From a virus, in IMG/VR virus record IMGVR_UViG_3300037424_000161, positions 1 through 51,291 of that record: a stretch of 51,291 nucleotides of DNA; one strand, given 5' to 3'. The notes beneath the pieces are model-generated. The model had not been told where the DNA came from. It searched no databases and saw only the letters and a program-made list of their open reading frames with translations. Shown in pieces: positions 2,196 to 51,291 of the stretch (positions are counted from its first letter, which is position 1; every line of letters starts with the position of its first letter). The position numbers were made by a program, and so were the translations under genes.

Positions 2196-2414
2196 TTGGA
2201 CTTCCTCAAATCTCAGTTTGACAAAGTCTTACTATCACTACTGTTCATTGCATCGGCTATTATGACAGTTGTCCTAATGCACTGGAACATGGATACTTCA
2301 ATGATAACCTGGAGCCAGTCCCTAACGACTGGCTTTGTAGGTGCGCTTCTCACACTCATCACTGGATCTCGTTTCACTGCACGTTCTAGTGATAAACCGC
2401 CCGGAGACAAGTAA
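2196..2414 (+). CDS. Small two-TM membrane protein (holin-like)
   Basis: 72 aa with TTG start and AAGGGG 6 nt upstream. Hydrophobic segments VLLSLLFIASAIMTVVLM and GFVGALLTLITG. Confidence 0.45.
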   Translation: MDFLKSQFDKVLLSLLFIASAIMTVVLMHWNMDTSMITWSQSLTTGFVGALLTLITGSRFTARSSDKPPGDK

Positions 2415-2569
2415 TGGACTTCTACATTTCAATGGCACTCTCTATTATCTTTCAAGTACTCAAACAAGCTGTAAAGAACAAGAAATCCAAGTCTGACATG
2501 AAGTCTGCATTTCTTAAACTTCGTGATCAGATCAATGTACTCTATGCCGGTGATAGGGATTTTGATTAG
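2414..2569 (+). CDS. Small hypothetical protein (51 aa, below ORF-track cutoff)
   Basis: ATG 2414 overlaps the upstream TAA (TAATG). Translates MDFYISMALSIIFQVLKQAVKNKKSK...; stop TAG at 2567-2569. Confidence 0.35.
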   Translation: MDFYISMALSIIFQVLKQAVKNKKSKSDMKSAFLKLRDQINVLYAGDRDFD

Positions 2570-2577
2570 GAGGAGCT

Positions 2578-3003
2578 ATGCGTAGGGTATTTCTGTTTCT
2601 GCTTCTGGCATTGCTGGCGGCTCCTGCATGGTCGCAGCAGATCACGAAGACCGTCGCCTGGGATGCGAGCTCGTCCGCAGCGACGGCACCGGTTGACAAT
2701 CCCGTGAAATACCGCCTCTACACCTGCGCCGATCAGACTTTCACCGGCTGCCAGGTGCAGGAGGCTGGGACCGCGCTCGAAATCCCGCACACATTCCAGA
2801 GCGGCACTGTATTTCAGTTCGCCACGGCCTACTGGTATGCACTCGTGGTTGACGGTGTGCCGCAAGGGGACATCGCGGAGAGCGGCAAGAGCAACGTCAT
2901 GCGGGTCACAGTGCAGATCCCTCCGGGCAACCCCGGCAATGCGAAGATCCGGGTTGTCGATGTCGAACCGACGAACAGCGGGCAGACCATTGGAGTGAAG
3001 TAA
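2578..3003 (+). CDS. Secreted protein with signal peptide, in G+C-rich island
   Basis: AGGAGG 6 nt upstream of ATG. N-terminus MRRVFLFLLLALLAAPAWSQQ is a classic signal peptide. Composition is visibly more G+C-rich than the flanks. Confidence 0.6.
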   Translation: MRRVFLFLLLALLAAPAWSQQITKTVAWDASSSAATAPVDNPVKYRLYTCADQTFTGCQVQEAGTALEIPHTFQSGTVFQFATAYWYALVVDGVPQGDIAESGKSNVMRVTVQIPPGNPGNAKIRVVDVEPTNSGQTIGVK

Positions 3004-3329
3004 TGTGTTGGCGCGGGCATGACCCGGAGCGGAGGAATAAGTACGGGCATTGCATGGACTGTCACGCAATCCTTATGCGGGCGCGACGGCACGGCAGACA
3101 GGCTCACCGGATGCCTCGTTATCGCTTGAACATTTCGGAATTTCACAGACTGACGAAAGGCAGAATGACAATCGTGGCGCAGTTAGCGGGAATCTCGCGG
3201 GACACTGTTCGATGCTGGCTCTCCGGTGCGCGTCACGCGGGCGGAAGTTGTGCGACGAACAGAGTAAGAGCGGAAGCGCTAACTGCGGTGTTTGGAATAC
3301 CTTTCGATTATTTATGGACGAGTATTTGA
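3003..3329 (+). CDS. Cys/His-rich HTH protein, in G+C-rich island
   Basis: TAATG overlap with the upstream gene. Contains CWRGH...HCMDCH and the HTH-like MTIVAQLAGISRDTVRCWLSG. Competing ORFs in this G+C-rich stretch lower confidence. Confidence 0.45.
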   Translation: MCWRGHDPERRNKYGHCMDCHAILMRARRHGRQAHRMPRYRLNISEFHRLTKGRMTIVAQLAGISRDTVRCWLSGARHAGGSCATNRVRAEALTAVFGIPFDYLWTSI

Positions 3330-3473: not shown

Positions 3474-3498
3474 AGATCATTCAAAAATTGAACGAACT
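3474..3498. repeat. 25-bp palindromic motif, copy 3
   Basis: agatcattcaaaaattgaacgaact; abuts the inverted repeat 3407-3415/3465-3473; ATG 3500 follows after 1 nt. Confidence 0.85.
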
Positions 3499-3499
3499 A

Positions 3500-4561
3500 A
3501 TGGCACCTAAACTTTCAATTATCATCAGTAACCGTAACGACGTGGCAATGTTAGCTGTCACTGTTCGCTCCTGCATAGAGGAACTTCGTCCACTCGGACC
3601 CGGTGCAAGTGAGATAGTGATCGCTGACAACTCTGACAAGGACACCTTTCAGCTCCTAAATGGTGCTTTACCTTCTGGCTACTGCAGAGACAAACTCCTC
3701 AGAATCCTTCGTCAAGACTTTCCCTGCCTTTTCTCCGCACGAGAGTTAGCAGCTGAAAGGGCCCTTGGACAGTACATACTATGTCTCGACTCACATATGA
3801 TAGTCGGACGAGATGTCTTCATCGACCTTGTCGACTTCATGGACCGCCACTCAAATGACAGTGATCTGGGCTTCGCTCATGCTCCAATTTCCTGGGCTCA
3901 TCAGCATGAAGATCGCGCTCGTCATGACCGTGATATGAGTCAGCATGAACTTGGTGCATGGGGTACAGCGTACAAAACTGAGCGTACAATAACTTGGAAG
4001 GGAATGCCTTGGATATGTCGCAGGGAATGGTTCCTTGACCGGAACAAGGGACTAAACGGCTACGGTGCTCTCTCTGAGCATCGTGTGAGTTGGGGAGGAG
4101 GGGACTTGCACATAGGCGTTAAGCCTTGGTTACTTGGATTTAAAAACTGGGCAGTCCCCTCTAACCCATGCATACATATAGGGCCGTTTCCTAAAGTAGA
4201 TCTGGGCAAAGATCCAAATACCACTATTGTCAACAAAGCTCGCCCCGATCGCTATCGCCTCTACAATACAAGTGGAGAGTTCCCTCATACTTTTGGATTT
4301 CTCGTCTCCTGCTACGTACTCGGAGGCGAACCTATGATGCATCGTAATAAGAAAGCTATCACCGAGCACTTTGGACGATTTCTAAATGTTGACAAGTGGT
4401 GGTCGAAAGCTATAGAAATTGGCACTAACGAACGAAAGTGGTTACTTGATCGACAAGTTATGTCATTCGAACAGCTTCTCATAACTAAACCTTGGAACTC
4501 TAATGGCTCAAACTCAACGTCAAGCGACGGATGCACAGATCTACAAGCTGTGGCTGTCTAA
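3500..4561 (+). CDS. GT-A fold glycosyltransferase (GT2/GT27-like)
   Basis: LSIIISNRND...EIVIADNSDKD is a GT2-type N-terminus. ILCLDSHMIV is a DxH motif. WGGGDLHIGVKPWLLG...PCIHIG resembles the WGGENLE Gal/GalNAc-T motif. TTG 3488 trimmed to ATG 3500. Confidence 0.75.
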   Translation: MAPKLSIIISNRNDVAMLAVTVRSCIEELRPLGPGASEIVIADNSDKDTFQLLNGALPSGYCRDKLLRILRQDFPCLFSARELAAERALGQYILCLDSHMIVGRDVFIDLVDFMDRHSNDSDLGFAHAPISWAHQHEDRARHDRDMSQHELGAWGTAYKTERTITWKGMPWICRREWFLDRNKGLNGYGALSEHRVSWGGGDLHIGVKPWLLGFKNWAVPSNPCIHIGPFPKVDLGKDPNTTIVNKARPDRYRLYNTSGEFPHTFGFLVSCYVLGGEPMMHRNKKAITEHFGRFLNVDKWWSKAIEIGTNERKWLLDRQVMSFEQLLITKPWNSNGSNSTSSDGCTDLQAVAV

Positions 4562-4997
4562 AGTACATGATAATAGATACCTACGCCCACAGCGATGGGC
4601 AGAGCTTCTCAAAGTAATAGAGAAGTTTCGTGTAAAAACAGTAATTGAGTTTGGCTGTGGTGTTTCTACACTACTGATGGGTCATAGAGGTATCCGAGTT
4701 GACACTTATGAAACTGATCCTTTCTACCTAGACTTCGTCAAGTCTCTCAATCCACCTAACGTACTCTTTCACCTTCACAATAACGTAAACATAGATGTAT
4801 CTGGCACTTACGACATGGCTCTAGTCGACGGAGTCCTCCCCCGACAGCCTCAGCTAAAGGCCGTCCTGCCACTTACCAGACTAATCGCAATAGATGACTT
4901 TGGCCCACTTTATAAACGCGAGCTTGTACCACTGTTAGGCAATCATACTCGGCTTAATCCAGGCGCACCGTTAATGGCTATTTTCAAGATCGAATAA
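4503..4997 (+). CDS. Class I SAM-dependent methyltransferase-like protein
   Basis: 164 aa. Motif I-like VIEFGCGVST, acidic VDTYETD and DMALVDG. Overlaps the GT gene by 59 nt. Confidence 0.55.
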   Translation: MAQTQRQATDAQIYKLWLSKVHDNRYLRPQRWAELLKVIEKFRVKTVIEFGCGVSTLLMGHRGIRVDTYETDPFYLDFVKSLNPPNVLFHLHNNVNIDVSGTYDMALVDGVLPRQPQLKAVLPLTRLIAIDDFGPLYKRELVPLLGNHTRLNPGAPLMAIFKIE

Positions 4998-5011
4998 ATT
5001 TTGAACGAACT
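4987..5011. repeat. 25-bp palindromic motif, copy 4
   Basis: agatcgaataaattttgaacgaact; overlaps the stop of 4503..4997; GGAGA and ATG 5029 follow. Confidence 0.85.
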
Positions 5012-5028: not shown

Positions 5029-5202
5029 ATGAAGGTCACTAAACTGAAACAGCTACACCCTAATATGTGGGATGTAGTATATAAACAAGCAATGAATGAA
5101 CTTAAACGAGTTATTATAGTTCATGAGACTATAGCTCACAATGTAGCCTTTGTAGCATGTAGTCAGTTACATAAGGAACTAAAGGTTAAGACTGATAAAT
5201 GA
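5029..5202 (+). CDS. Small hypothetical protein
   Basis: ORF 5014..5202 trimmed to ATG 5029 (GGAGA 8 nt upstream). ATGA overlap with the terminase start. Confidence 0.5.
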   Translation: MKVTKLKQLHPNMWDVVYKQAMNELKRVIIVHETIAHNVAFVACSQLHKELKVKTDK

Positions 5203-6743
5203 TGGATCCTCAGATTAGTGAAATCTTAGTAAACTGCTCTATTTCCACCAGGATGATTGCTAAGACTTTCTTTCCTGAGCGATTCACCTTACCATTTGCA
5301 GAAAATATCCACGGGCCTATCTTCGATCTCATAGATGGACCCGATCAAAAAGTCGCCATTGCAGCCCCTCGAGGCTGGGGTAAGACCTCGGTAGTCGGTC
5401 TCGCACTAATGGCCCGTAAGATCATGTTTCGTCAGACTCCCTTTATCATCTACATCAATAAATCTGAAACTGCTGCCATCATGCAGACGGACAACTTACG
5501 TCGTGAACTTGTAACCAACCGTAACATCAAAGGATTCTTCGGCTCTGTTAAAACTCGCACCGCTGGCGATGACGAGATTGAAGAACAATTCTCAAAGAAA
5601 GCTTGGCTAGCCTATGATACCTTTGTACTTCCTCGTGGGGCAGGTCAGCAGGTTCGAGGTGTGCTCTTTAAAAACTCTCGTCCTGGCCTTATTGTCATTG
5701 ATGATCTGGAAGATCCAGACAAGATCGAGAATGAAGAAATACGAAAAGCTTGGTATCAGTGGCTATACGCTGATGTCATAAAGGCAGTTCCTCAAATCGG
5801 ACCTGAGGCGGCCAACTGGAAGATTGTCTACATTGATACACTGAAGCATGAAGACTCGGTTCTCCAAAAATTATTAGATTCGCCAGAGTGGAAATCTGTT
5901 CGTCTCGAAGCTTGTGACAACGACTTTCACTCGACCGCTCCTAACTTCATCTCTGATGAACAGATAATGAAGGAGTGGAATCACCACGTAGAGGCAGGTC
6001 AAACTGACGTATTCTTTCGTGAGTTTCGTAACCTACCTATTTCGACCAAGGATTCGGCCTTCCGCCAGGAATATTTCCATTACTACAACCTTCCTCATGA
6101 TCGAGGGAAGGGTGAACAGGACATTGACAAACTCGACGTAGACATTCAGGCAGATCAGAACATTGAAACAGTAGTCATCCTCGATCCTGCCAAGACTGTC
6201 AAGATTCACTCTGCTGAATCAGCTATCATCGGTATCGGTATTGACCTAACGAGTGCTCGTCTCTACATCCGTGATGCAGTATCCGAAAAGATGTATCCAG
6301 ATGAAATCTACGATGCCTTATTCGGTATGGCCACTCGTCTCGGTGCGAAGGTAATCGGAATTGAGGAAACATCTCTCAACGAGTTTATCAAACAGCCTAT
6401 CAAAAATGAGATGTTTCGCCGCGGGACATTCTTTGAGTTAGTATGGCTCAGTCCTAGAGGTGGCAACAAGAAACAAGAACGTATCAAGGAGCTAGTCCCT
6501 TACTATCGAGGTGGTTGTATCTACCATAATGCCTCTAATGTGGCTATCAAGAAACTTGAGCAACAGTTGCTGATGTTCCCTCGATCAGCTCTATGGGACA
6601 TGATGGATGCTGAAGCTTACATCATTGAGATGCTTGAACTCGGAGAACGATACTTCAGCCCTAAAGAAAATCCAGATGATGTTGAGTCTGAGTATAAGGA
6701 ACTATCTTATGATAAACCAGTTGAAGACTGGAGGTACATCTAA
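5199..6743 (+). CDS. terL: Terminase large subunit
   Basis: 514 aa. Walker A-like IAAPRGWGKTS and Walker B-like GLIVIDDLED. C-terminal nuclease-sized domain. Confidence 0.9.
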   Translation: MMDPQISEILVNCSISTRMIAKTFFPERFTLPFAENIHGPIFDLIDGPDQKVAIAAPRGWGKTSVVGLALMARKIMFRQTPFIIYINKSETAAIMQTDNLRRELVTNRNIKGFFGSVKTRTAGDDEIEEQFSKKAWLAYDTFVLPRGAGQQVRGVLFKNSRPGLIVIDDLEDPDKIENEEIRKAWYQWLYADVIKAVPQIGPEAANWKIVYIDTLKHEDSVLQKLLDSPEWKSVRLEACDNDFHSTAPNFISDEQIMKEWNHHVEAGQTDVFFREFRNLPISTKDSAFRQEYFHYYNLPHDRGKGEQDIDKLDVDIQADQNIETVVILDPAKTVKIHSAESAIIGIGIDLTSARLYIRDAVSEKMYPDEIYDALFGMATRLGAKVIGIEETSLNEFIKQPIKNEMFRRGTFFELVWLSPRGGNKKQERIKELVPYYRGGCIYHNASNVAIKKLEQQLLMFPRSALWDMMDAEAYIIEMLELGERYFSPKENPDDVESEYKELSYDKPVEDWRYI

Positions 6744-7207
6744 TGGCTGACAATCCTCAGAAATGGTCTGCCTACACAGCTGCAAAGACTGCATTGTTTG
6801 CAGCTACAGATTTAAAGAACTTGACGACTGGATCTGGTAAGCTATCAACGGCTTCAGCCATTAACAATGCAGCCGGAGATCAGCTAGCCGACCTCGAACT
6901 CTTAATTGATTTAGCAACTGCTGCAGCTGCTGGTGGCTACATTGCTATCTGGTTTATCAAAGCTCTCGATGCATCAAACTATGGAAGCGGCGCTGACGCA
7001 GTATTCCCAGCTAGACCCCCGGATGTAATTATTCCCGTGCGTTCGACCACGGATGACTCACAGGTCGTTACCATTGCTGGTGTACTGTGGCCTCAGGGGT
7101 TATTCAAAGTACTATTTCAGAATAACTCTGGTCAGACAACAACTAACACAGATAGTCTAACTCAAGTTTATTTCCGTTCCTATAACAATAATATAGTGAC
7201 TCCATAG
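6743..7207 (+). CDS. Hypothetical structural/accessory protein
   Basis: 154 aa; start overlaps the terL stop; first of four genes between terL and portal. Confidence 0.55.
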   Translation: MADNPQKWSAYTAAKTALFAATDLKNLTTGSGKLSTASAINNAAGDQLADLELLIDLATAAAAGGYIAIWFIKALDASNYGSGADAVFPARPPDVIIPVRSTTDDSQVVTIAGVLWPQGLFKVLFQNNSGQTTTNTDSLTQVYFRSYNNNIVTP

Positions 7208-8094
7208 TGTCTAAACATTCTCTAATCTGGAATCCATTATCTACTGTGGCTCCTACAACTCTTCCTCCGACGACGTTAGCTCCGACAACAATTCCTACAA
7301 CTTCAGCTCCAACAACTGTCGCTCCTACACTTCCTCCAACTACCCTTGCACCAACTACAGTTCCGACAACTCTCCCTCCTACTACCTTAACTCCAACTAC
7401 CCCAGCTCCAAGCGAAATTAAAGTATCTAAGGCTGTAGTATACTCTGTCCTAGGTCCTCCATACATAAGTGTTTCTAAATCGATCATTTATGCTGTAATA
7501 GAAGAAGTAGTACCTACAACTCTACCAACTACAGTCGCTCCGACTACTCTTCCATCTACATCTCCTCCTACGACTCTCGCTCCAACCACAGTACCAACTA
7601 CTACTGCTCCAACAACTTTGCCGACAACATCTCCATCTACTACAGAGGCTCCTACTACTCTAGCCCCTACAATTGTACCTACAACTCTTGCACCAACAGT
7701 ACTTCCTACTACTCTTCCACCTACAACCTTAGTTCCACCTACAACTCTAGCACCTACCGTTGCTCCAACTACTTTAGCTCCCACTATACCTCCTACAACG
7801 ATAGCTCCGACTACATTTCCTACAACTACTCCTCCGACCACAATAGCGCCTACCACTCACCTAACATCCTTAGCACCCACTACACCTTCCACAACAGGTG
7901 TACCAACAACAGTACTACCAACAACTATAACTCCGACAACCCTTACACCTACAACTTTCTTATCATTAGCTCCAACGACAGCTATACCTTATGTCATATG
8001 TGAGAAGGTATTCGACTCTCGTATTACTAACATATTACATCTAGTCTCATCTATCACTAAGGAGATCAAGTACAATGGACACCTTTGTGGGTGA
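7207..8094 (+). CDS. Pro-Thr-Thr repeat (mucin-like) protein
   Basis: GTG start overlapping the upstream stop. About 220 of 295 aa are x-P-T-T-[LVI] pentads (nt 7249-7410 and 7513-7980). These are split by VSKAVVYSVL/VSKSIIYAVI strands. Confidence 0.6.
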   Translation: MSKHSLIWNPLSTVAPTTLPPTTLAPTTIPTTSAPTTVAPTLPPTTLAPTTVPTTLPPTTLTPTTPAPSEIKVSKAVVYSVLGPPYISVSKSIIYAVIEEVVPTTLPTTVAPTTLPSTSPPTTLAPTTVPTTTAPTTLPTTSPSTTEAPTTLAPTIVPTTLAPTVLPTTLPPTTLVPPTTLAPTVAPTTLAPTIPPTTIAPTTFPTTTPPTTIAPTTHLTSLAPTTPSTTGVPTTVLPTTITPTTLTPTTFLSLAPTTAIPYVICEKVFDSRITNILHLVSSITKEIKYNGHLCG

Positions 8095-8464
8095 TACTCC
8101 AAGATTGGTTATCAAAACAGGTATTGATCTCTCTGGCTATGACACCTTATTGATAAAGTTTAGACGTCCTAATCATACATCAGGGTTTTGGACCGCTACC
8201 ATATATCCTACTAATAACACTTGGATGTACTATGACTTACTACCTACTGATCTTAACATACCAGGAATGTGGGCACTAGAAGCTCACGCTCATGATCCAG
8301 CATTACCAGGAGCTGTGACCGCCCATCTCCATGGTAAACCTTTTAATCTAGACATAGCTATGCCATTGACAGAGTCATCTTCACCTCCGACAACAATGGC
8401 ACCAACGACGACTATAACGACTTTGTCACCAACAACATTAGCGCCAACAACTTTGGCACCGTAG
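8075..8464 (+). CDS. Hypothetical structural protein with C-terminal PTT tag
   Basis: 129 aa ending SSSPPTTMAPTTTITTLSPTTLAPTTLAP (nt 8375-8461). Confidence 0.55.
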   Translation: MDTFVGDTPRLVIKTGIDLSGYDTLLIKFRRPNHTSGFWTATIYPTNNTWMYYDLLPTDLNIPGMWALEAHAHDPALPGAVTAHLHGKPFNLDIAMPLTESSSPPTTMAPTTTITTLSPTTLAPTTLAP

Positions 8465-8469: not shown

Positions 8470-9432
8470 ATGGCTATACTTTGGATGGGTGGAGAAGACA
8501 TAAGCTTTCCCAATGGAGCAAGTCCTCCAGTAGGTGTCACTACATCAGGATGGTTTAGAAGTAACTATGCCCGCTGTGCACTATCTATGGAGTTACATAC
8601 TGGATATAGTAAAGCATTTTCTGGTGGAGGTGTTACCTCGTGCTGGCTATCTGTGCGGTTTTATTTACTAAATGGTTACTATACTGCTCAGCGAAGTATA
8701 GGGCTTATTAAAAATAGTACTACCAATAGAGGAATATTCTTTGGGTGCCTTTCTGCCAATAAACTATCAATATTTAAGTATAATGGAACTACAGAGACTA
8801 CTCTAGTCACAGAGGTTGGTGCATCTGCAGTGGGACTAAATAAAATAGATATGCAGATCATTGACTATGGTGGATCTGGGACAGTTAATCTCTATGTTAA
8901 TGGCGTATTAGTTGCCACCTATACTGGTGATATTAGTGTTGATGGTGTAAGTGATTTAGATTCAGTCTGGCTCGGACCCAATGGAGCTGAAATTGCAGTA
9001 TCTGAGATTATAGTAGCTAGTACTGATACACGGGCTAAATCACTACGTACACATTCTATCACCGGTGCTGGAGATGCAAATGCTTGGCATGGAACATATG
9101 CAGATATTGATGAGGTTGCAATTAATGATGTAGATTTTGTATACTCAGATGCTGCAGCTGACGATATTCAGTGTGCCCTTGCAGACTCACCAGCCGGGAC
9201 ATTCGCTGTAGATGCAATTAAGGTCGAAGCCCGTGCTTGTATAGGTGCTGGTAGCCCTATTGATGTACTAAAACTCGGTGTTAAGCATGGCGGATCTATC
9301 GATGTAGACGCTGGACAGACTCTAGATGAATCGTGGAAGACTTACGAGAGAATGACAACGACTATTAACGCGAACCCTATTACGACAGCTATATTAGATG
9401 CAGCTCAGCTTAACCTTAGGTCTGCCGCATAG
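8470..9432 (+). CDS. Hypothetical structural protein (beta-rich, jelly-roll/LamG-like guess)
   Basis: 320 aa, beta-strand-rich composition, immediately upstream of portal. Confidence 0.55.
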   Translation: MAILWMGGEDISFPNGASPPVGVTTSGWFRSNYARCALSMELHTGYSKAFSGGGVTSCWLSVRFYLLNGYYTAQRSIGLIKNSTTNRGIFFGCLSANKLSIFKYNGTTETTLVTEVGASAVGLNKIDMQIIDYGGSGTVNLYVNGVLVATYTGDISVDGVSDLDSVWLGPNGAEIAVSEIIVASTDTRAKSLRTHSITGAGDANAWHGTYADIDEVAINDVDFVYSDAAADDIQCALADSPAGTFAVDAIKVEARACIGAGSPIDVLKLGVKHGGSIDVDAGQTLDESWKTYERMTTTINANPITTAILDAAQLNLRSAA

Positions 9433-12617: not shown

Positions 12618-13070
12618 ATGGGACTTGAACAGAATAACGAACAGCACTACCGGGAGGTGGTCGATAAGTTCGTTGACATCAATGAGGATTACCAGATGTC
12701 AACGAGGGACTATGTGGTTCGCCCCTCGGCTCATGACCCTCTCAATCAGGCAATCGCTCTTACATTGCCCCCTGTGGCAGAAGCAGTTGGACGCTTCTAC
12801 TCCATCATTTCTCGTGGAGCTGACGCAGTCAATACTATCACTATTCACGACAGACATGATTCAGAATGCTGGACTGCTGACATTGTGATGAATAGCAAGT
12901 GCGACCGTGTACTTATGTACAGCGATGGACTCTGCTGGCATGCACTAACATCCGAATCAGTTGGTGATTGGCCTGGTCAGACTACCAGGGCTCCTGGAAC
13001 TGCGAGACCTACTACACTGGCTCCTACTACACTAGGGCAAACAACTGAGGCGCCAACTACTGCTCCTTAG
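12618..13070 (+). CDS. Hypothetical head-associated protein with C-terminal PTT tag
   Basis: 150 aa ending GQTTRAPGTARPTTLAPTTLGQTTEAPTTAP (nt 12975-13067). Located directly upstream of the capsid gene. Confidence 0.55.
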   Translation: MGLEQNNEQHYREVVDKFVDINEDYQMSTRDYVVRPSAHDPLNQAIALTLPPVAEAVGRFYSIISRGADAVNTITIHDRHDSECWTADIVMNSKCDRVLMYSDGLCWHALTSESVGDWPGQTTRAPGTARPTTLAPTTLGQTTEAPTTAP

Positions 13071-13125: not shown

Positions 13126-13279
13126 ATGTTTCTTGGAATGAGAGGTAATGACGACTGGGTGGTCGATCAGCGACCACTCAATTGGAGACAACAAATCCTA
13201 TATCTTTACCCTAATGGGATGGCTCCATTAACTGCCATTCTGTCTATGATGGGATCTGAGAAAGTAGATGATCCTCAGT
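13126..13279 (+). CDS. Major capsid protein, exon 1
   Basis: Translates MFLGMRGNDDWVVDQRPLNWRQQILYLYPNGMAPLTAILSMMGSEKVDDPQ. This resembles the N-terminus of HK97-fold podovirus capsid proteins, but the frame stops 6 codons later unless spliced. Confidence 0.7.
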
Positions 13280-14135
13280 CAATTAGAGGCTGCTTGTAGA
13301 GGAAACTTTACAATGAAAACAGTGAGAATTGCTGGAACTCCCTTAGAGCCTTCATCACCAGAGAGTGAAAGTATGCAGGATTGGGAAATCAGCAGCGAAA
13401 GCTACATGAACCTACAAAGATTTGTAGACAAAACAGCCTATTCGGTAGGCGCTATTCTAGGCGATGGTAGTATGAGATACGTTCCTAGTTATGGAAATGG
13501 TTCTTGGTATTCGATTGAGTTATCTTGTATGGATATAGAAATTATCAAGAGATTTCAGTATGAGATGCATACTACTTTTGGTAAGGACTATACTATTCAT
13601 ACTAAGAAACTCGATAGTGGAGTAGACTTCTACACTATAAGAACTAGCTCAAAGCATATTCATCATTACTTCTATAATCTTACCAACGGAAAGACTGAGA
13701 TTCCAGTGGAGATTATTAGAAGTTCAGATGATGTTAAGAAAGCTCTTGTAGCTGGTTTAATGGATACTGATGGAACTGTTAAACTTAACGAAACCTGGAA
13801 TGGATCAAAAACTAACAAAAATCCTAGATGGCAACTTGGCTTTGCTAATACTGAGATTAAGATAGTTGAATCGCTAGCGTCGCTACTAACCTCTATGAAG
13901 GTTAAAGTTGGTAGTATGCAAACTACGAAAAGAGGGAGTTATAGGACTATCTATAATATCTTTCCCAACATTCGTAGCTTTATTGATGCTGGATTCTATT
14001 TTCAGGCTCAGAGAAAGCAAAATAGGCTTAATGATTATCTTGTTCATGTATCTGGTTCAGAGACTATGCACACTGCATCCGTGACATCGGATGATGATAT
14101 AGTCCGAGCTTAGGTAAAAGCCTAAGAACTACTCG
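13280..14135 (+). mobile_element. Probable group I intron carrying a LAGLIDADG homing endonuclease
   Basis: 856 nt separate two capsid fragments lying in different frames. The exon ends in T (13279) and the insert ends in G (14135). Joining gives DDPQ-F-HWWTQ and a 1326-nt (442-codon) ORF. Confidence 0.65.
13313..14113 (+). CDS. LAGLIDADG homing endonuclease (double-motif)
   Basis: Two LAGLIDADG-type motifs, VGAILGDGSM and VAGLMDTDGT. The ORF is open from 13268; the start is uncertain (ATGs at 13268, 13313 and further downstream). Confidence 0.8.
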   Translation: MKTVRIAGTPLEPSSPESESMQDWEISSESYMNLQRFVDKTAYSVGAILGDGSMRYVPSYGNGSWYSIELSCMDIEIIKRFQYEMHTTFGKDYTIHTKKLDSGVDFYTIRTSSKHIHHYFYNLTNGKTEIPVEIIRSSDDVKKALVAGLMDTDGTVKLNETWNGSKTNKNPRWQLGFANTEIKIVESLASLLTSMKVKVGSMQTTKRGSYRTIYNIFPNIRSFIDAGFYFQAQRKQNRLNDYLVHVSGSETMHTASVTSDDDIVRA

Positions 14136-15307
14136 TTCATTGGTGGACCCAGTCACAGACAGCTGTAGCTGGTCTCGTTCAGGGTGTTTATACCTTACCT
14201 GATTGCTCTGTTGCATACGTTACTGGTGGAGTGGCCGGGACTGTTCTCTATGTCCTCATAACTACCGCCCTCGGTAATCGTATCCGGGAAGGCCATCAGA
14301 TCCTCCTTCGTTGCTCTACTGACTGGTCAGTAGATGTAGTTGGTAAGGTCACCGGCTGTGCTCGTGGTGGAGTTAATACAGTCCTTGCAGTCAAACTGCT
14401 TGAAGCTGACGATAACTCTATTACGATTCCTGCCCATGACCTGAGTGATTGCGACACCTTTGGCATCATCGGTAACATCAACCCTGAGGGTGGTGAGATG
14501 CCTGATGCAATCGCTCTGAATCCTACTAAGGTATACAACTACACCCAGATCTTCCGTACTCCACTTTCCATTACTCGTACTGCCAAAAAGACTCGTCTTC
14601 GCACTGGCGATCAGTATCAGAAGGCTAAGTCTGAAGCACTCGAGATGCACTCTTGGGAAATGGAGTTGGCGTTCCTCTGGGGTATTCGCACTGAGAACAT
14701 CGGTGACAATGGTAAGCCTGAACGCACCACTATGGGTGTGATCAACTTCATTCGTCAGTTTGCGGCGACAAACTGCGATGATTACACGCTCAATCCCACC
14801 TACGCTGGTGTAGCTTGGCTCACTGGTGGTGAAACCTGGCTTAAGACCATGCTAGAGCAGATCTTCCGCTTCGGTGCCGAAGAGAAACTCTGTCTCTGTG
14901 GATCCGGCTTCTTGCTCGGTATCGACGCTCTCGCTAGTGTCAATGGCTATATCAACCTTTCCGTCGGTCAAAAGGCTTACGGAATGCAGATTCGCTCGTG
15001 GCTTACGCCCTTCGGCACTATTCACATGAAGACTCATCCACTGTTCAGCTTTGCTGCTACAACTCGTAACATGGGAGTTATTCTTGAGCCGAAGGAACTT
15101 ACCTACCGCTACATTGACGATACTTCGTTCTACAGCGAAACGTCTAACAAGACTCATCCTGAAGGCTATGGCAATCGTCGACTTGATGGTACTAATGAGG
15201 AGTTCCTTACTGAGTGTGGACTTGAGTTTGGTCTGCCTCAGAAGTGCGCTGTGCTCAACGGTGTTGGTCTGGATAGTGCTTTAGCGGCGCCGACTACGGC
15301 TCCGTAG
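14136..15307 (+). CDS. Major capsid protein, exon 2
   Basis: The frame is open from 14126, well upstream of the ORF-track GTG 14231. Begins (F)HWWTQSQTAVAGL, contains NYTQIFRTPLSITRTAKKTRLRTGD, and ends in a short PTT tag ALAAPTTAP. Confidence 0.75.
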
Positions 15308-15364
15308 GCTAACCTCCTACAGACCAGCTAACGACTGGAGAGGTAGTGCCCATTCTGCCTCTCC

Positions 15365-15389
15365 AGTTCGTTCAAAATTTCAACGATCT
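15365..15389. repeat. 25-bp palindromic motif, copy 7
   Basis: agttcgttcaaaatttcaacgatct; 9 nt upstream of ATG 15399. Confidence 0.85.
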
Positions 15390-15398
15390 TGGTGACAT

Positions 15399-16121
15399 AT
15401 GGACTTACGTGAGATTCGAACAAAGTTCCGTGACCTCTCTGGTCGCTACGATCTCGTCAATGATGACTTCAGTGATAACGGGGCTGACTTCTTCATTAAT
15501 GAGGCTAGTAAGTGGCTTGACAAGACCGTTGAGACAACTAAGTCCTGGGGCTCGTATATGATAGAGAGACCTACAGGAGTCTGGTATGTGAAGTTTCCAC
15601 TCGCCCGTGCTATCAAAGAAGTATGGATTTCAACCGTCGAGGGTAGATGGCAACTTGAGAAAATCCGTCTACAGGACCTCATAGCATCTTATTTCTCTGG
15701 CACTCCTGCAACCCTAGTCAATGGGTCACCTGAGTACTATAGTCCATTAGTTACCAGACATATACCAGAAACTATTACTCCAGTCCAGTTAGCAGCCTTT
15801 GCTGCCTATGTAGGTGTAATCCCTAGTATGGCTCATGACTACAACGCAATCATTATGTCTGCTCCAGTTGATCAAGCTACATTGGTTGAAATAGTTGGAT
15901 TATTTTACTCTATGGAGCTGACTGCAGACAAGGATGAAAACTACTGGAGTAAGACTAACCCACTAATGTTAATCGAAGCCACTATACGGCAGACTTATAT
16001 TCTTAGTGGTAATAAACCTATGTTGGATGTACTAGATCGTGGAATAGATGGAGACCTTACTCGACTTGATAAGGATCTGGTCGAACAGATCTCTGCCGAA
16101 GTTGATGAGATGGAAGGGTAA
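15399..16121 (+). CDS. Hypothetical structural protein (head-tail adaptor/tail tubular A-like by position)
   Basis: 240 aa, first gene after the capsid. Preferred over the overlapping ORF 15346..15561, which runs through the palindrome. Confidence 0.55.
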   Translation: MDLREIRTKFRDLSGRYDLVNDDFSDNGADFFINEASKWLDKTVETTKSWGSYMIERPTGVWYVKFPLARAIKEVWISTVEGRWQLEKIRLQDLIASYFSGTPATLVNGSPEYYSPLVTRHIPETITPVQLAAFAAYVGVIPSMAHDYNAIIMSAPVDQATLVEIVGLFYSMELTADKDENYWSKTNPLMLIEATIRQTYILSGNKPMLDVLDRGIDGDLTRLDKDLVEQISAEVDEMEG

Positions 16122-16178
16122 TGAGATTCATCTACAAGCACGGTCGTTGAGGACATTGTGCTCCTCAGTTGAGGGGGA

Positions 16179-16361
16179 ATGAAAATGCTCTGGACAAGGC
16201 AGCAGGTAAAGTATCTATTGTCAAAAGGATCTCCACTGACAGCAGAGCAGAAGTCAAAGATGAAGGGCGAACTTCACGCAAATCCTCAGATGGGGCACAA
16301 GAAGAAGAAACATCACTCAGCAAATGATGGAAAGTTTATTGATGATAGGAGACATCTATGA
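16179..16361 (+). CDS. Small basic hypothetical protein
   Basis: 60 aa; GAGGGGGA immediately upstream; ATGA overlap with the next gene. Confidence 0.5.
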   Translation: MKMLWTRQQVKYLLSKGSPLTAEQKSKMKGELHANPQMGHKKKKHHSANDGKFIDDRRHL

Positions 16362-16708: not shown

Positions 16709-17211
16709 TGCCCATCTTACAAAATGGCTCCTTCACATTTGAGATACCCACTGAAGATCTAGCAAAAGGACTACGACCTTCAGTACGTAGTCCTAGGAAT
16801 GCAAAGTTCCTTACACTCTGTGAGGGAATGGTAGGATTGGATAATGTACTACAGGTGCTAGATGACATCGAGACAAATAGAGTCCTTACAGCAGCTATCA
16901 CAGATGGCTTTCCATATCCACAGATCTTTATCTTCACTAATGTAATAATTATCTGTGGTGAGACTACAATCTACGAACTAATTGCTGGTACAATAACATT
17001 GATGCTCGATGTAGGTGCTGGAAATGCCGGGATTGAGTGGTCTGCTGTAGACTTCTTCGATTACGTCTATATGAGTAATGGAAAAGTAGCAGTGCAGCGA
17101 CAAGCGAGTGATCAAGTCTGGGAAATAACCACAGATGTACCTATCGCAAGTGCAATCTGTAACTTCAATGGACAAGTATTAATCGGCGCTCCTGGTGTAG
17201 TGAGACCTTAA
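16708..17211 (+). CDS. Hypothetical structural protein
   Basis: 167 aa; TAATG overlaps at both ends. Confidence 0.55.
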   Translation: MPILQNGSFTFEIPTEDLAKGLRPSVRSPRNAKFLTLCEGMVGLDNVLQVLDDIETNRVLTAAITDGFPYPQIFIFTNVIIICGETTIYELIAGTITLMLDVGAGNAGIEWSAVDFFDYVYMSNGKVAVQRQASDQVWEITTDVPIASAICNFNGQVLIGAPGVVRP

Positions 17212-19388
17212 TGTCTACAACGACTCCTCCTATTACCATTCCTCCGTTCGCTACAACCTTAGCACCTACAACTGAACCTCCTACTTATGCTCCAGTAACA
17301 GACGCGCCTGAAGTACCAATAGTTCCTTCACCCGAACCTTGGGCACAGGATCGTAGACTTGGCCCTTGGTCATTCATATCTCAACGTAATAAGTGGGGCT
17401 ATCTCAATAATCCCAGATGGCAACCTATCCCTAGACCTTTCGTTCACGGTGGACCAGATGACTATACTGGACGAGAGAGTGAAGAACCACAGATCTACAA
17501 ACCTAATGAGCCAAAGTATCCTTCTGGCACAGTGAAGATCCATCATCAGTGTGGACACTGGCATAAACCTGAGGCATCAGGAACTGCACCTCCCTTAGAG
17601 AACTTTTTAATATCTGTACCTCTCGAAATGATGTTTACTAAATATTTCGAGAATGAGTCAAATACTACATGGATAACTACTGAAACAAGAATAGATCCGG
17701 CTGATTACTCTGGTATTATAGATGCCTGGTTTGAAGTAATGGTTGATAGTGGTCAGACAGAAGCCGGTCATGAGTTTAAATTAGTTGATGAAACTGGTTA
17801 TGTATATGCCACAATAGATTGTACCACCGCTCATAATGGCCTTGGTAGAATAAGGGAACATTTTACATTAAGTGCAGTTGCTAGAAATTATTATGTGAGA
17901 ATGGAATATACTGGTCCAAACTGGTGTGCTTCATCCACTAGTAGAGCTATGATAGTCTTGGATATAGTAAACCCTACCATAACTCGTATTCAGATACCTT
18001 TACTAGACTCAAATCAATCTGCTCCTGGATGTGCAGCTACAGGTGAAGAGCAGCATGATTGGCCCATCTTTGTATATGCTTACTGTGGGAGATATAGAAG
18101 AGATGAATATGGCTATGACGATGGAGATACTACCGGTACATCAGGTAATAATCCAAGACAGTTTGTACTATTCAAAAAAGACGAATTAAAGTGGGATACT
18201 ATAGACCATTGGGACCTTGAAGTAATTGGAGGTCTATGGAACTTAGCTGAGGGTAGAGTAGCTCTATTTAATAAAACAACTAATCAAATGGTAGCTGGCT
18301 CGGAGCTAATCTGGCAAGACGGAGATAGTCCATTTCCTGCTGAATTAATAGCTTATTGGGGACCTATAGTTGGCTGTCATCCTTTACGTAAGACTATCAG
18401 AATTGAAAATAATGCTGTTAATTTTACTAATGGAGATGAGTTTGAACTTCGTCTTAGAGCTGTCGGTGGTGTAGACAACTGGGATGAAGTTGTATTAGTT
18501 TATTCAGCTTGTCTATATGCAACAGTTACTCCAGTTACTAAATGTGAAGTTTATTGGAGAATAAGCACAGCCACAGTTGGGACTTATTTTATATGGAATT
18601 ATGATAACTTAGTACGTTCTTTATATGACCCAACAAAGTTCTCACCAGGTGGTACTCTGCATTTTGAGATGACTGCCGCATGTGAAGGTCTATTATCCAA
18701 AATATACATAACAGATTTGGATGAAGAAGATTTTGGATCTCCTGAGGAACAACTATTAAGTCATAGTGCTGAAATTATAAGTGGGGCATGGCAACCCAGT
18801 CCACTAAACTCAGGTCCATTAGGTGATGATATACTAATGAATACTGAAGGTGGTCCACTATTAGATTCATCTGCGTCAATAGTCTTGGCTGTCCCTAGTG
18901 GTGGATATATCTTTGTTAGAGCTGGTGCATTTGACCTAACACCTATAGTTGGAAAGACCGTATATCAGCTAAGACTATATGCTGCAGTAGTAAATGCCAC
19001 TCAAGATACTTATTGGTATCTTGGTGGAGGGTTAGTATTTAGTGAAGCTACTACTGTAACAGGTCCACCAACTGTTTATCAGGTTAGGGGAATTCTACGT
19101 AGTATATCTGGAACTACCGTACCAACTACTGTCTTAGTTGGATTTAATAAGACTGATAGTAACCCTGTTGTATATGCTGTAAATCAAGTATCTGTATTTG
19201 CTGGACTAGCCCAAGATATAGCGGCTACTGAACTAATTCCAACAATGATCAGGACTAGACTACGTACTGGTGATATTCTTGGAGCAATAGATCCAAATCA
19301 TAGAATTATTACACACTATGATGTACCAAATACTAGTAATGACATAGGTCATGCTATGGGATTTCTAATTCGTCAAGTTAGTTTATAG
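17211..19388 (+). CDS. Large tail protein (tail tubular B/nozzle or fibre-like) with N-terminal PTT tag
   Basis: 725 aa beginning MSTTTPPITIPPFATTLAPTTEPPTYAPVTDAPEVPIVPSPEP (nt 17211-17339). The call rests on size and position. Confidence 0.6.
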   Translation: MSTTTPPITIPPFATTLAPTTEPPTYAPVTDAPEVPIVPSPEPWAQDRRLGPWSFISQRNKWGYLNNPRWQPIPRPFVHGGPDDYTGRESEEPQIYKPNEPKYPSGTVKIHHQCGHWHKPEASGTAPPLENFLISVPLEMMFTKYFENESNTTWITTETRIDPADYSGIIDAWFEVMVDSGQTEAGHEFKLVDETGYVYATIDCTTAHNGLGRIREHFTLSAVARNYYVRMEYTGPNWCASSTSRAMIVLDIVNPTITRIQIPLLDSNQSAPGCAATGEEQHDWPIFVYAYCGRYRRDEYGYDDGDTTGTSGNNPRQFVLFKKDELKWDTIDHWDLEVIGGLWNLAEGRVALFNKTTNQMVAGSELIWQDGDSPFPAELIAYWGPIVGCHPLRKTIRIENNAVNFTNGDEFELRLRAVGGVDNWDEVVLVYSACLYATVTPVTKCEVYWRISTATVGTYFIWNYDNLVRSLYDPTKFSPGGTLHFEMTAACEGLLSKIYITDLDEEDFGSPEEQLLSHSAEIISGAWQPSPLNSGPLGDDILMNTEGGPLLDSSASIVLAVPSGGYIFVRAGAFDLTPIVGKTVYQLRLYAAVVNATQDTYWYLGGGLVFSEATTVTGPPTVYQVRGILRSISGTTVPTTVLVGFNKTDSNPVVYAVNQVSVFAGLAQDIAATELIPTMIRTRLRTGDILGAIDPNHRIITHYDVPNTSNDIGHAMGFLIRQVSL

Positions 19389-19834: not shown

Positions 19835-21151
19835 ATGTCTACTCCGGCGCCAACGACATTAGCACCTACTACACCACTGTCACCTACAACTCCAGTACCT
19901 ACTACCTTAGTCGCTCCAACCACGGCTACTACGACAGGTGTGCCAACTACTGAAGCACCTACAACTACACTTACAACATTAGCTCCCACGACAGCAGCCC
20001 CAACGACAGTAGGTCCAACTACACTAGCACCTACGACTATAGTACCAGGTACTACACTAACAACAGTTGCTCCCGCTACAGCTGTGCCAGGTACTTCTGC
20101 ACCTTCACAGATTGAGTATCCGGCTAATTTAATTCTCTACCCAGGTCCAATAGAGATTACCTTATCACTACATGGAGAGATACTTAACAAAACAGTATTT
20201 GTCCAGCCTCTGATAATAACTCTCAGTCTACTCGGATCATATGCTAAGGATGTGTATATAGATGGTGGTCCCATAGAGATCACTATTACACTCCATAGTT
20301 ATGGTACACTAACGGCTGGTGCTAACAAGTGTAACTGGATTCAGTGGTCTAAGGTTGGTTACCTAGACTTTACCATAGATGAATCGAACGTAGCTGGGGA
20401 ACGACCACTTGACTGGAAGGGATGTGTTAGTGAAATACTCAAACTTGTTGATCGAGTGATTGTCTATGGTGAGAATGGTGTGAGTATGATGTCTCCAGCA
20501 GGTGTCAACTGGGGAATGCAAACTCTGCATAGACTGGGGGTTGTATGTAAGCCAGTTGGTACAGATACTGAACACTTCTTCATTGATAAGACTAACAAAC
20601 TATATAGGTTAGCAGGAGATGGACTTAAGCTACTTGATTACTCTGAGTTCCTCTCAACACTAACAAATCCTAGAATGTTACTTGATACAGAAACAGGTAT
20701 CATCTACATCTGTGATGGAGAACTTGGATTTGTCTATAGCACAAAGAGTGGAAGCTTCGGTTCAGGCCCAGTTAATGTAACTGGTGTTGGTACACAGAGT
20801 GGAACACTCTATGTTGTAGCATCTGATATAATCGAAGTACCTAAACTGCATATTTGCACAGATATCTATGACCTAGGTACTCGTAAGCCTAAGACAATTC
20901 AGTGGATTGAAGTAGGTACAGATCTATCTAATGGTCTGCAAGCAATGGTAGAGTCAAGAGTTAGTAACAAACAAGGATTTATGGAATCTAGGTGGATCTT
21001 AGTTAATCCAAGTGGGATGGCATTCATCCCTTGTTATGGGCGAGAGTTTAAGTTTCACCTTCGATCATTCATCTATGAATATCTCGAACTAGATTACCTT
21101 AGGGTGACTGGAACAGTACACGGAACTAACTATCTCGATCAGGTGGGATAA
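19835..21151 (+). CDS. Tail fibre/spike-like protein with 91-aa N-terminal PTT region
   Basis: GGAGG upstream. N-terminus MSTPAPTTLAPTTPLSPTTPVPTT... (nt 19835-20107), followed by repeats GPIEITLSLHG / PLIITLSLLG / GPIEITITLHS. Confidence 0.6.
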   Translation: MSTPAPTTLAPTTPLSPTTPVPTTLVAPTTATTTGVPTTEAPTTTLTTLAPTTAAPTTVGPTTLAPTTIVPGTTLTTVAPATAVPGTSAPSQIEYPANLILYPGPIEITLSLHGEILNKTVFVQPLIITLSLLGSYAKDVYIDGGPIEITITLHSYGTLTAGANKCNWIQWSKVGYLDFTIDESNVAGERPLDWKGCVSEILKLVDRVIVYGENGVSMMSPAGVNWGMQTLHRLGVVCKPVGTDTEHFFIDKTNKLYRLAGDGLKLLDYSEFLSTLTNPRMLLDTETGIIYICDGELGFVYSTKSGSFGSGPVNVTGVGTQSGTLYVVASDIIEVPKLHICTDIYDLGTRKPKTIQWIEVGTDLSNGLQAMVESRVSNKQGFMESRWILVNPSGMAFIPCYGREFKFHLRSFIYEYLELDYLRVTGTVHGTNYLDQVG

Positions 21152-31513: not shown

Positions 31514-31816
31514 CTACTGTTCTTTAACAAAGATACCGTTGACCATCTTACCACGACGGTCCTTTATTTGGATGTAAGCATAGAGATAGCACTGAGTTAG
31601 AGTAACTCCATTAAATCCAGCTATCATAGTAAGAACAACTATCATATCACCGATGCTATCTATAGTACCTTCTAAATCACTATCAGTTAGTGCATCACCA
31701 AGCTCAACAAACTCTTCTTTTAGTTTTGTAAGTTGTCCAAGATCAGAAGATTGTTCAAAAATTGCACGATCTTCAGCCCACGATAGGACTTTCTTCTCTA
31801 TCTCTTCGAAGTTCAT
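31514..31816 (-). CDS. mazG: MazG-like nucleotide pyrophosphohydrolase
   Basis: 100 aa. Contains KLKEEFVELGDAL and SIGDMIVVL helices typical of small phage MazG-like proteins. Overlaps the polymerase 3' end by 44 nt. Confidence 0.55.
   Translation of the reverse strand: MNFEEIEKKVLSWAEDRAIFEQSSDLGQLTKLKEEFVELGDALTDSDLEGTIDSIGDMIVVLTMIAGFNGVTLTQCYLYAYIQIKDRRGKMVNGIFVKEQ
31748..31772. repeat. 25-bp palindromic motif, copy 12
   Basis: agattgttcaaaaattgcacgatct; directly abuts the polymerase stop (31773-31775) and lies inside the mazG N-terminal coding region. Confidence 0.7.
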
Positions 31817-34307: not shown

Positions 34308-34315
34308 ATGTCTCC

Positions 34316-36533: not shown

Positions 36534-36761
36534 CTACTCCATTAGTTTCTGCTGAAGTTCTTGTATACGGCACCAGAGGATGAAGGCCCAGCCACTTACA
36601 TCGAGTAGCTCTTGCTGTATCTCGTCAAGTAATTTGTCAGGTGAAGCTCCAAATGAAGTGTCACCATATGTCTCAGCGCCAATTAAGAGACGATCACGTA
36701 GCATAGCTGAGTACATTGGCCACTTACGTACAATAGCATCACGGGAGATAGGGCAGTTCAT
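36534..36761 (-). CDS. Hypothetical protein
   Basis: The ORF-track start 36773 is a TTG. ATG 36761 has GGAG 7 nt upstream and a TAATG overlap with the upstream stop. Confidence 0.5.
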   Translation of the reverse strand: MNCPISRDAIVRKWPMYSAMLRDRLLIGAETYGDTSFGASPDKLLDEIQQELLDVSGWAFILWCRIQELQQKLME

Positions 36762-37927
36762 TAGCGTCTCCAATTAACCTTAGGCATAATCACTTCCTTA
36801 ATCACTCGATCACGGAAAGGAAGGATTCGTCTAATAAGGTTAGTTATCTGTGTCTGAATATCCTGAGTTGGTGTATATCCTAATTCAAATAGTTTATGAT
36901 GCACTGGGTTGTAATAGTGTGACTCAGCTTCAAGTCGAGGATTAGGAATATGATCTATATCAAGATACGAGGAGCGCTCAAGACCTAAATCCCGGGCTGA
37001 TTGTTGCACCATCTTGGCTAACTGATTGACTGTATAGAGGTTCTCGAACTGGTTGAAAGTTCGATATTCACCTTCAGAAGGAGGATTGTTTAGTGCTATT
37101 GTTAGACACTGAATCGAATCTTTCAATGGCAGAAATCCACGAGTCTGTTCTCCTTTTCCGTACACAGTTAGAGAATGTCCAATGATGGCCTGAACACAGA
37201 AGCGATTAATCACAGTGCCGAAGCACTCGTCGTAGTCGAACCTTGTTAACTCATTATCATTTTTAGTTTCGTTAAGACCGAAGACTACACCTTGCATAAT
37301 GTCGGTAGAGTGTAGACCCCAGTTACGACAGGCAAACTCAATGTTGTGAGTGTCGTGGACTTTGCTTAAGTGGTAGAAAGAACCTGCACTACGTGGAAAT
37401 AGTAGATTAGCATATGGACAATCAGTATCACCCTCATGCCAAGCTTTATCACTTCCTACTATTGCAGAATGAACTTCTGGTATTCTTCCTTCGGGTATAT
37501 CACAATTAGGTGTTCCATACTCTCCCATTGTACCTAATTTAATGAGATGGGCTGAAGGACAGGACTCTTTCATAGCCCAAAGTAGATGTAATGTACCTAT
37601 AACATTCTGCTGCTGAGTCTCAGTCGCATGACGAACTGATTTCATTGAGTATGCAGCAGATGGTTGTTCAGCCAGATGTATGATTGCTTCTGGTTGAAAT
37701 GACCTTACTAGATTAGTGAGTGCTGTATAATCCACACCAAGAGTTATTCTGGAAGTAGGAAACTTCTTCCTATGATCAATAGATGTTAGGGAAGAACTTC
37801 CTTCATTGTACACTCTATGATCTCTCGAATGATTATCCATACCAAGTACATCATGGCCCCTAGAATCTAGATGAAGTGCCAGTGGCCATCCAATATAGCC
37901 GTCAATTCCCAGAATGAGAACTCTCAT
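36761..37927 (-). CDS. sqdB: UDP-sulfoquinovose synthase (SQD1/SqdB) homologue, extended SDR
   Basis: 388 aa. Blocks ILGIDGYIGW, KLGTMGEYGTPN, SFYHLSKVHDTHNI (YxxxK), NRFCVQAIIGHSLTVYGKGEQTRGF and PNPRLEAESHYYN match my recollection of SQD1 almost block for block. Confidence 0.7.
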   Translation of the reverse strand: MRVLILGIDGYIGWPLALHLDSRGHDVLGMDNHSRDHRVYNEGSSSLTSIDHRKKFPTSRITLGVDYTALTNLVRSFQPEAIIHLAEQPSAAYSMKSVRHATETQQQNVIGTLHLLWAMKESCPSAHLIKLGTMGEYGTPNCDIPEGRIPEVHSAIVGSDKAWHEGDTDCPYANLLFPRSAGSFYHLSKVHDTHNIEFACRNWGLHSTDIMQGVVFGLNETKNDNELTRFDYDECFGTVINRFCVQAIIGHSLTVYGKGEQTRGFLPLKDSIQCLTIALNNPPSEGEYRTFNQFENLYTVNQLAKMVQQSARDLGLERSSYLDIDHIPNPRLEAESHYYNPVHHKLFELGYTPTQDIQTQITNLIRRILPFRDRVIKEVIMPKVNWRR

Positions 37928-51284: not shown

Positions 51285-51291
51285 AGTACAT
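51165..51291. repeat. Terminal direct repeat, right copy (identical to 1..127)
   Basis: Base-for-base identity with 1-127. Confidence 0.95.

Follow-up and report, generated by a model that had tools for sequence, protein, structure and literature searches.

Polypeptide GalNAc-transferases of family GT27 start mucin glycosylation in animals and take Thr/Pro-rich mucin repeats as acceptors. The protein glycans of Sulfolobus contain sulfoquinovose, for which Agl3 is the source. Virion glycosylation is so far documented for mycobacteriophages only. According to PMC11600133 and PMC12619734, which cite the work of Freeman 2023, tandem glycosyltransferases and an O-methyltransferase modify capsid and tail-tube termini in Che8, Corndog/cluster O and Myrna, the glycans being carried on terminal extensions of the structural proteins. 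Here we describe a locus in the viral record IMGVR_UViG_3300037424_000161 of IMG/VR, which was analysed over its whole length of 51,291 nucleotides (the window). The locus encodes a glycosyltransferase of 353 amino acids (the GT; 3500..4561, + strand) and, as in the mycobacteriophages, a putative partner O-methyltransferase, a class I S-adenosylmethionine (SAM) methyltransferase-like protein of 164 amino acids (the MT-like protein; 4503..4997, + strand). On the comparative evidence we lean towards reading it as part of a phage-encoded O-glycosylation system for Thr/Pro-rich tags, which would be initiated by a lectin-less GT27-like enzyme and with which the phage probably glycosylates its own particle. 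The folds, motifs, homologies, fusions and co-occurrence on which this reading draws were computed directly.

The GT reading frame contains the segments LSIIISNRND (residues 5-14), EIVIADNSDKD (38-48), ARELAAERALGQYILCLDSHMIV (80-102) and WGGGDLHIGVKPWLLGFKNWAVPSNPCIHIG (198-228). Its ATG at 3500 was favoured over a TTG at 3488 because homologues begin at the same methionine; the gene call in the source database (P0001) is truncated to 254 amino acids, 72% of the open reading frame (ORF), and is without the N-terminal nucleotide-binding part. Residues 6-124 gave the sole Pfam match of the protein, to PF00535 Glycos_transf_2 (E 2.3e-11, 44.4 bits against a cut-off of 23.3), and since this family spans the catalytic domains of both GT2 and GT27 the match does not discriminate between them. 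It can be seen from an alignment of 30 GT homologues that D43-N-S-D46, D97-S-H99, W198-G-G-G-D202 and H226 are invariant, and the DxH motif (as DSH or DAH) together with the downstream histidine was kept in 20 further relatives, 16 of them distant. A search of the PDB with the single GT sequence returned no real match, and a search of PHROGs returned no match.

An AlphaFold2 (AF2) model of the GT (predicted local distance difference score, pLDDT, 86.5; predicted template-modelling score, pTM, 0.87) had a GT-A fold and a C-terminus that was helical and then disordered. When this model was compared with the PDB using Foldseek, the top 47 matches were all polypeptide GalNAc-transferases (ppGalNAc-Ts; E 6e-13 to 2e-10, TMq 0.49-0.65), nearly all of them full-length and including T2, T10, T4, T7, T12, PGANT9 and TgGalNAc-T3; the next-best families were RmlT and TarP, at TMq 0.45-0.47. 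At the level of sequence, a whole-length profile of the GT family aligned with PDB entries over the generic N-terminal half only, and a GT27-specific signal emerged only after the protein had been split into halves. The C-terminal-half profile (residues 160-240) then found 15 PDB sequences, all ppGalNAc-Ts (best E 8e-5), with WGGG[DE] placed on WGGEN and the invariant His226 on the histidine of VGH(V/I)F, which we take to be the third metal ligand in GT27. The N-terminal-half profile placed DSH on the DCH of GalNAc-T12 (FLDCHCE), and the other GT2 matches that were displayed residue by residue have DxD where the GT family has DSH. A preliminary description, drawn up from the letters of this DNA alone, had proposed a GT2-type N-terminus with a DxH motif and had named GT27 as the related family, and both proposals are supported by these results.

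With GT27 (human GalNAc-T2, T10 and T12, Drosophila PGANT9 and Toxoplasma GalNAc-T3) the phage GT has in common the GT-A fold, DxH in place of DxD, and the WGG(E/G)(N/D) Gal/GalNAc-T motif followed by a conserved histidine about 25 residues further on; the kind of acceptor that we propose below is also the same. It differs from GT27 in being 14-19% identical, in its helical C-terminal extension, in its predicted cytoplasmic location and in a donor that is possibly not UDP-GalNAc (UDP, uridine diphosphate). Neither the Pfam search nor the AF2 model of the 353 residues contained the ricin-type C-terminal lectin domain, and because the first strand begins at residue 5 there is no N-terminal hydrophobic segment that would make a type II anchor and stem. 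Since the lectin domain and the membrane anchor are lacking, we label the enzyme GT27-like and have not filed it as a GT27 member. In our reading it is a soluble, lectin-less relative of the polypeptide GalNAc-transferases, with a metal site made up of the DxH motif and the downstream histidine, and is expected to use a UDP-sugar.

The MT-like gene overlaps the 3' end of the GT gene by 59 nt, in a different frame, and its product carries the sequence VIEFGCGVST. The best Pfam match of the protein was Methyltransf_23 (E 0.048), at 13.8 bits against a threshold of 27, and there was no match in NCBIfam or PHROGs. All Foldseek matches of its AF2 model (pLDDT 87.9) were class I SAM methyltransferases, as the preliminary description had supposed, and the best (TMq 0.70-0.73) were the cation-dependent O-methyltransferases 3ntv, 3tfw and 6jcl. 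The phage protein shares a Rossmann-type fold with these COMT/caffeoyl-CoA OMT-like enzymes and differs from them in being much shorter and in falling below Pfam thresholds. Invariant residues were E49-F-G-x-G-x-S-T56, E70, D109 and D131-D132. The first of these stretches is the predicted SAM-binding motif I, which reads GxGxS rather than GxGxG, E70 is the predicted acidic residue after strand 2, and the conserved aspartates would lie where cation-dependent O-methyltransferases bind their metal. We propose that the protein is a sugar O-methyltransferase. In P0019, P0062 and P0097 the GT and the MT-like protein form one in-frame polypeptide, and other members of the family have the GT fused to bona fide SAM methyltransferase domains and to extra glycosyltransferase domains. 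Through these fusions the two activities are linked in one pathway.

The GT-MT pair lies upstream of the gene for the terminase large subunit (terL; 5199..6743, + strand; 47% identity to an annotated terminase large subunit), as had been noted before. terL opens the packaging/structural block, and the GT belongs to the late block, just ahead of terL and of the genes for an SU10-like portal and capsid. Five ORFs in the structural region, all on the + strand, contain Thr/Pro-rich tracts (at 7231-7989, 8363-8461, 13008-13067, 17211-17300 and 19835-20074). The first ORF (7207..8094, + strand) encodes a mucin-like protein of 295 amino acids that consists nearly entirely of (P/A)TT(L/V)(A/P)P-type repeats (7231-7425 and 7507-7989), and GT-positive relatives have similar tracts between terL and portal, for example at 15424-16242 of locus L002. 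The second encodes a 129-residue protein with a C-terminal tag (8075..8464, + strand), homologues of which were found in GT-positive loci only (14 loci checked). The third encodes a 150-residue head-module protein, again with a C-terminal tag (12618..13070, + strand), and this is the best-supported candidate acceptor. The remaining two are structural-region proteins of 725 residues with an N-terminal tag (17211..19388, + strand) and of 438 residues with an 80-residue N-terminal Thr/Pro-rich region (19835..21151, + strand). Antisense ORFs with VVGG-type repeats opposite the PTT repeats (7143-7856 on the - strand of the window and 15148-16205 on the - strand of L002) are artefacts, and the mucin-like genes are missing from the public gene calls of L002 because the calls were placed on the antisense strand.

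About 150 related loci were compared, taken with 10-kb flanks, such that roughly 20 kb of each was examined. Strict Thr/Pro tracts were found in 16 of the 30 evaluable GT-positive genome clusters and in none of the 13 GT-negative clusters. The strict criterion under-calls the tags: several genomes scored as having the GT and no tract carry short Thr-rich tails on the 150-residue protein. Orthologues of this protein (found in L004-L148) share 52-70% identity as far as a conserved YSDG, whether or not the phage has the GT. Beyond it, the tail was Thr/Pro-rich (WPG..TT.APPGTT.APTT...) in all 15 distinct GT-positive lineages, 14 of which had at least five threonines, and read ...GYDY(DY), with at most three threonines, in all seven GT-negative lineages. 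The 150-residue protein had no match in the PDB, Pfam or PHROGs. The earlier suggestion that PTT tags go with the GT is supported by comparative genomics; the count of five tagged proteins comes from the present analysis.

The GT is a member of a large family that had not been named before. Its homologues numbered more than 450, at approximately 60-74% identity, many of them on metagenomic phage contigs of 40-52 kb, and a GT profile search returned 39 clusters at E<1e-30. Downstream of the GT the relatives have variable gene sets that encode further glycosyltransferases, SAM methyltransferases and tail-fibre-like proteins. The extra glycosyltransferases include a 551-residue double enzyme, a 502-residue GT7C+GT2 protein, a GT-B-like protein and a 934-residue B12-radical-SAM::GT2::rhamnosyltransferase-like fusion. 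Islands of this kind, with multi-domain glycosyltransferases and SAM methyltransferases that we regard as candidates for glycan elaboration, follow the GT at 2956-5760 of L015, 11168-14417 of L106 and 11484-15493 of L001. The arrangement of a conserved GT27-like enzyme with variable extenders fits a logic of initiation plus elongation, in which the window would represent the minimal version. It was also seen that the islands are then followed by genes for beta-helix or endosialidase-chaperone tail-fibre-like proteins.

A gene that the preliminary description had missed encodes a component that may supply the donor. The protein of 388 amino acids encoded at 36761..37927 (- strand) is a homologue of the UDP-sulfoquinovose synthases SQD1/SqdB/Agl3. 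It matched NCBIfam NF041015 over its full length (E 7e-137), with 456 bits against an equivalog cut-off of 575, and Arabidopsis SQD1 (PDB 1qrr) over residues 2-388 (E 7e-103), the catalytic segments GTMGEYGTP and YHLSK being kept. While a scan of IMG/VR with the single protein found no relatives, an alignment-based scan found relatives that share their phage contigs with the GT: among clade contigs of at least 40 kb, 18 had both genes, two had the GT only, none had the synthase only and seven had neither (Fisher 4e-5, without correction for phylogeny). The window ORFs that we scanned comprised all gene-like ones of at least 100 amino acids (those not antisense or nested) and a few shorter ones, and among these the GT was the only glycosyltransferase and the synthase the only nucleotide-sugar enzyme recognised. 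Because of this, and because the two genes co-occur, we infer that UDP-sulfoquinovose is the leading candidate donor. The phage enzyme is set apart from its cellular counterparts in being phage-encoded and in having as its partner only a GT27-like enzyme, with no GT4 or GT8 sulfolipid synthase.

Taken in order, the proposed steps would be as follows. Late in infection, in the host cytoplasm, the GT would initiate O-glycosylation at threonines of the disordered Thr/Pro tags and mucin-like repeats of five head/tail-region proteins. The SQD1 homologue would provide an unusual donor, UDP-sulfoquinovose, from UDP-glucose and sulfite, and the COMT-like methyltransferase encoded by the overlapping gene would then O-methylate the sugar. 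In relatives, the variable extra glycosyltransferases and methyltransferases would extend a glycan begun by the same initiating GT. That sulfoquinovose is the sugar transferred by the GT is a tentative proposal. Equally tentative is the picture of a sulfonated, methylated mucin-like coat, in which the GT would put sulfoquinovose directly on the threonines of the PTT repeats and the O-methyltransferase would cap the sugar; we know of no precedent for O-linked sulfoquinovosylation of proteins.

Several observations weigh against a virion O-glycosylation system, in whole or in part. By sequence, the N-terminal half of the GT best matches polysaccharide and teichoic-acid GT2 enzymes (chondroitin synthase, TarP), the TM-scores to GT27 are only moderate (0.5-0.65) and the lectin domain is missing. 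The MT-like protein and the synthase score below their family thresholds, as given above, and a homologue of the former (42% identity) is encoded at 4252-4701 of L012, a GT-negative relative, so that the MT-like protein can occur without the GT. No strict Thr/Pro tracts were present in the roughly 20 kb examined of 14 of the 30 GT-positive clusters. The co-occurrence statistics are uncorrected for phylogeny and the truly independent support is small; since the GT-negative genomes are largely one clade, few independent events lie behind the link between tail and GT. The tagged proteins are presumed to belong to the virion from the position of their genes among head and tail genes. The synthase gene is 17 kb from the GT gene and is present also in phage contigs without this GT family, and no relative was found in which the two adjoin, the nearest case being one locus in which they are 9 kb apart. 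Finally, the acceptor, the donor, the linkage and the order of the steps are ones that we infer.

The best surviving alternative is that the GT and the synthase modify the host envelope, whether a glycolipid, lipopolysaccharide, capsule or teichoic-acid-like polymer, for superinfection exclusion or host reprogramming, and that the Thr/Pro tracts are unmodified linkers. The Pfam family of the GT is GT2, and the best N-terminal matches are TarP, TarS and the chondroitin and heparosan synthases. SQD1-type enzymes classically serve sulfolipid synthesis. The one viral UDP-sulfoquinovose synthase noted previously was read as a host-directed auxiliary metabolic gene (PMC7785012), and in relatives the multi-glycosyltransferase islands adjoin tail-fibre-like genes. 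However, the GT lacks a transmembrane segment and is not accompanied by a flippase or polymerase, and the scanned ORFs included none that could be recognised as an integrase or lysogeny gene. Moreover, both the structural matches over the full length and the region of the C-terminal motifs indicate peptide-acceptor enzymes, and the two forms of the tail of the 150-residue protein track the GT perfectly, which a pure linker model does not predict. We therefore regard modification of the host envelope as unlikely, and prefer to think that the phage proteins are the acceptors.

A second alternative follows from the preliminary description, which had taken the GT-MT pair to be a mobile module because it is flanked by two copies of a 25-bp palindrome; on this view the pair would be a recently acquired accessory cassette with no tie to virion proteins. 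The two copies are indeed present. Copy 3 (3474..3498) ends 1 nt before the ATG of the GT, and copy 4 (4987..5011), which covers the stop codon of the MT-like gene, is degenerate, with five mismatches and a poor left arm. The region has further features that a mobile cassette might show: the GT lies in a hypervariable stretch between a conserved helix-turn-helix (HTH) gene and terL, where anything from 14 bp to 8.5 kb separates the GT from terL, its presence differs among close terL relatives, and its GC content (approximately 48%) is slightly above the genome mean (approximately 43%). However, the palindrome (AGTTCGTTCAAAATTTGAACGAACT) has 18 matches with up to six mismatches across the genome (at 409, 1873, 3474, 4987, 9431, 13082, 15365, 22484, 25342, 26047, 31748, 34316, 38114, 42863, 44971, 47631, 49379 and 50393), against none in five shuffled sequences. 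The sites fall mostly at gene boundaries in both halves of the genome, one of them lying upstream of the gene for the sulfoquinovose synthase at a distance of about 190 bp, and relatives carry the palindrome at other boundaries, sometimes straight after the GT. The two copies that flank the pair are therefore ordinary members of a genome-wide intergenic motif and not cassette ends.

Other findings also speak against a mobile cassette. The genes next to the GT-MT pair do not include a transposase, integrase or homing enzyme, and a GT-MT unit with palindromes at differing sites or in unrelated backbones was not found across hundreds of contigs. In divergence the GT (60-74%) and terL (64-81%) are comparable. 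In a neighbour-joining tree of terL the GT-negative phages formed one main clade and three singletons, equivalent to about four events, which suggests that the GT was present in the ancestor of the clade and was lost some four times. We conclude that a recent, mobile origin of the pair is improbable, and the claim of a mobile module is not upheld. The palindrome itself is probably a DNA-level regulatory or protein-binding site, perhaps for a phage regulator, and is analogous to the genome-wide inverted repeat that, according to PMC11600133, is present in approximately 35 copies in cluster O mycobacteriophages. A role as terminator or strong RNA hairpin was considered and rejected, as the motif is not a canonical terminator and would form only a modest hairpin.

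Glycosylation of phage DNA as a base hypermodification against restriction, which is suggested by the fact that phage glycosyltransferases often modify DNA (PMC13326640; 10.1101/2023.12.21.572611) and by the presence in the genome of a ParB::N6/N4 methylase, a dATP/dGTP pyrophosphohydrolase, a MazG-like protein and a polymerase with a domain like uracil-DNA glycosylase (UDG), is very improbable, as the scan of ORFs revealed no enzyme forming hydroxymethyl-pyrimidines (thymidylate-synthase-like or TET/JBP), the GT gene lies in the late structural block, its fold is nearest to peptide glycosyltransferases and the link with Thr-rich tails would be left unexplained.

The preliminary description had called the putative O-glycosylation system undescribed. 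This stands for the enzyme family, for the kind of acceptor and tag and for the link with a sulfoquinovose synthase, and does not stand for virion glycosylation as such, which is known from mycobacteriophages. A literature search found no phage GT27-like enzyme and no phage mucin-type glycosylation. Compared with the mycobacteriophage system, the proposed acceptors are long PTT-type mucin-like repeats on several proteins, a nucleotide-sugar synthase is added, and neither the GT nor its two proposed partners, MT-like protein and synthase, had a tblastn match in 50,697 GenBank phage records. The system is widespread yet invisible in cultured-phage databases, and its enzyme family is unrelated to the mycobacteriophage glycosyltransferases. 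If our reading is correct, it would be the first mucin-type glycosylation machinery in a prokaryotic virus and, should the donor be as proposed, the first case of O-linked protein sulfoquinovosylation, adding a new destination of sulfoquinovose to the sulfur cycle. It would also extend the enzyme family behind the start of animal mucin glycosylation to a lineage in prokaryotic viruses, and would bear on how GT27 arose in evolution. Virion glycosylation alters immune recognition of phages and may affect sticking to surfaces or resistance to proteases, and a compact, soluble, lectin-free peptide O-glycosyltransferase with a short tag would be of use for glyco-engineering in bacteria.

Bases 1-127 of the window recur exactly at 51165-51291, and we therefore take the window to be a complete phage genome of approximately 51.2 kb; the 127-bp duplication is either a circular-assembly overlap or a short direct terminal repeat. 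The genome encodes a portal and a major capsid protein of SU10 type, in an SU10-like podovirus head module, and the minus strand carries replication genes. The nearest named relative is Desulfofustis phage LS06-2018-MD01, which has a terL 47% identical to that of the window and has neither the GT nor Thr/Pro tracts. A host could not be inferred, as the window has no tRNA genes and the sole GT homologue among 185,579 species genomes is on a 6-kb contig of a metagenome-assembled genome labelled as an archaeon.

Some further features of the genome were noted. Beside the genes with Thr/Pro tags lies one for a 320-residue protein (8470-9432; phrog_6368) with a weak concanavalin-A-like/Laminin_G_3 match, for which a glycan-binding role is conceivable, and in L074 an in-frame stretch just upstream of the Thr/Pro tract looks lectin-like by eye alone. 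A LAGLIDADG/HNH-like homing endonuclease gene (13268-14113) is located between the gene for the 150-residue protein and the major capsid gene. Ahead of the GT, a patch at 2400-3300 is GC-rich (51-59% against the genome mean of 43%) and has long ORFs on both strands. Within it, 2578..3003 encodes a 141-residue protein with a signal-peptide-like N-terminus, a homologue of which is also found just upstream of the GT in L002, and the adjacent 108-residue protein (3003..3329) gave weak, sub-threshold HTH matches. Two minus-strand regions (31514-35671 and 46784-47188) encode a DNA polymerase A with an N-terminal UDG-like domain, the ParB::N6/N4 DNA methylase fusion, a MazG/PRA-PH-like protein and the dATP/dGTP pyrophosphohydrolase, a set that hints at non-canonical nucleotide handling or DNA modification.

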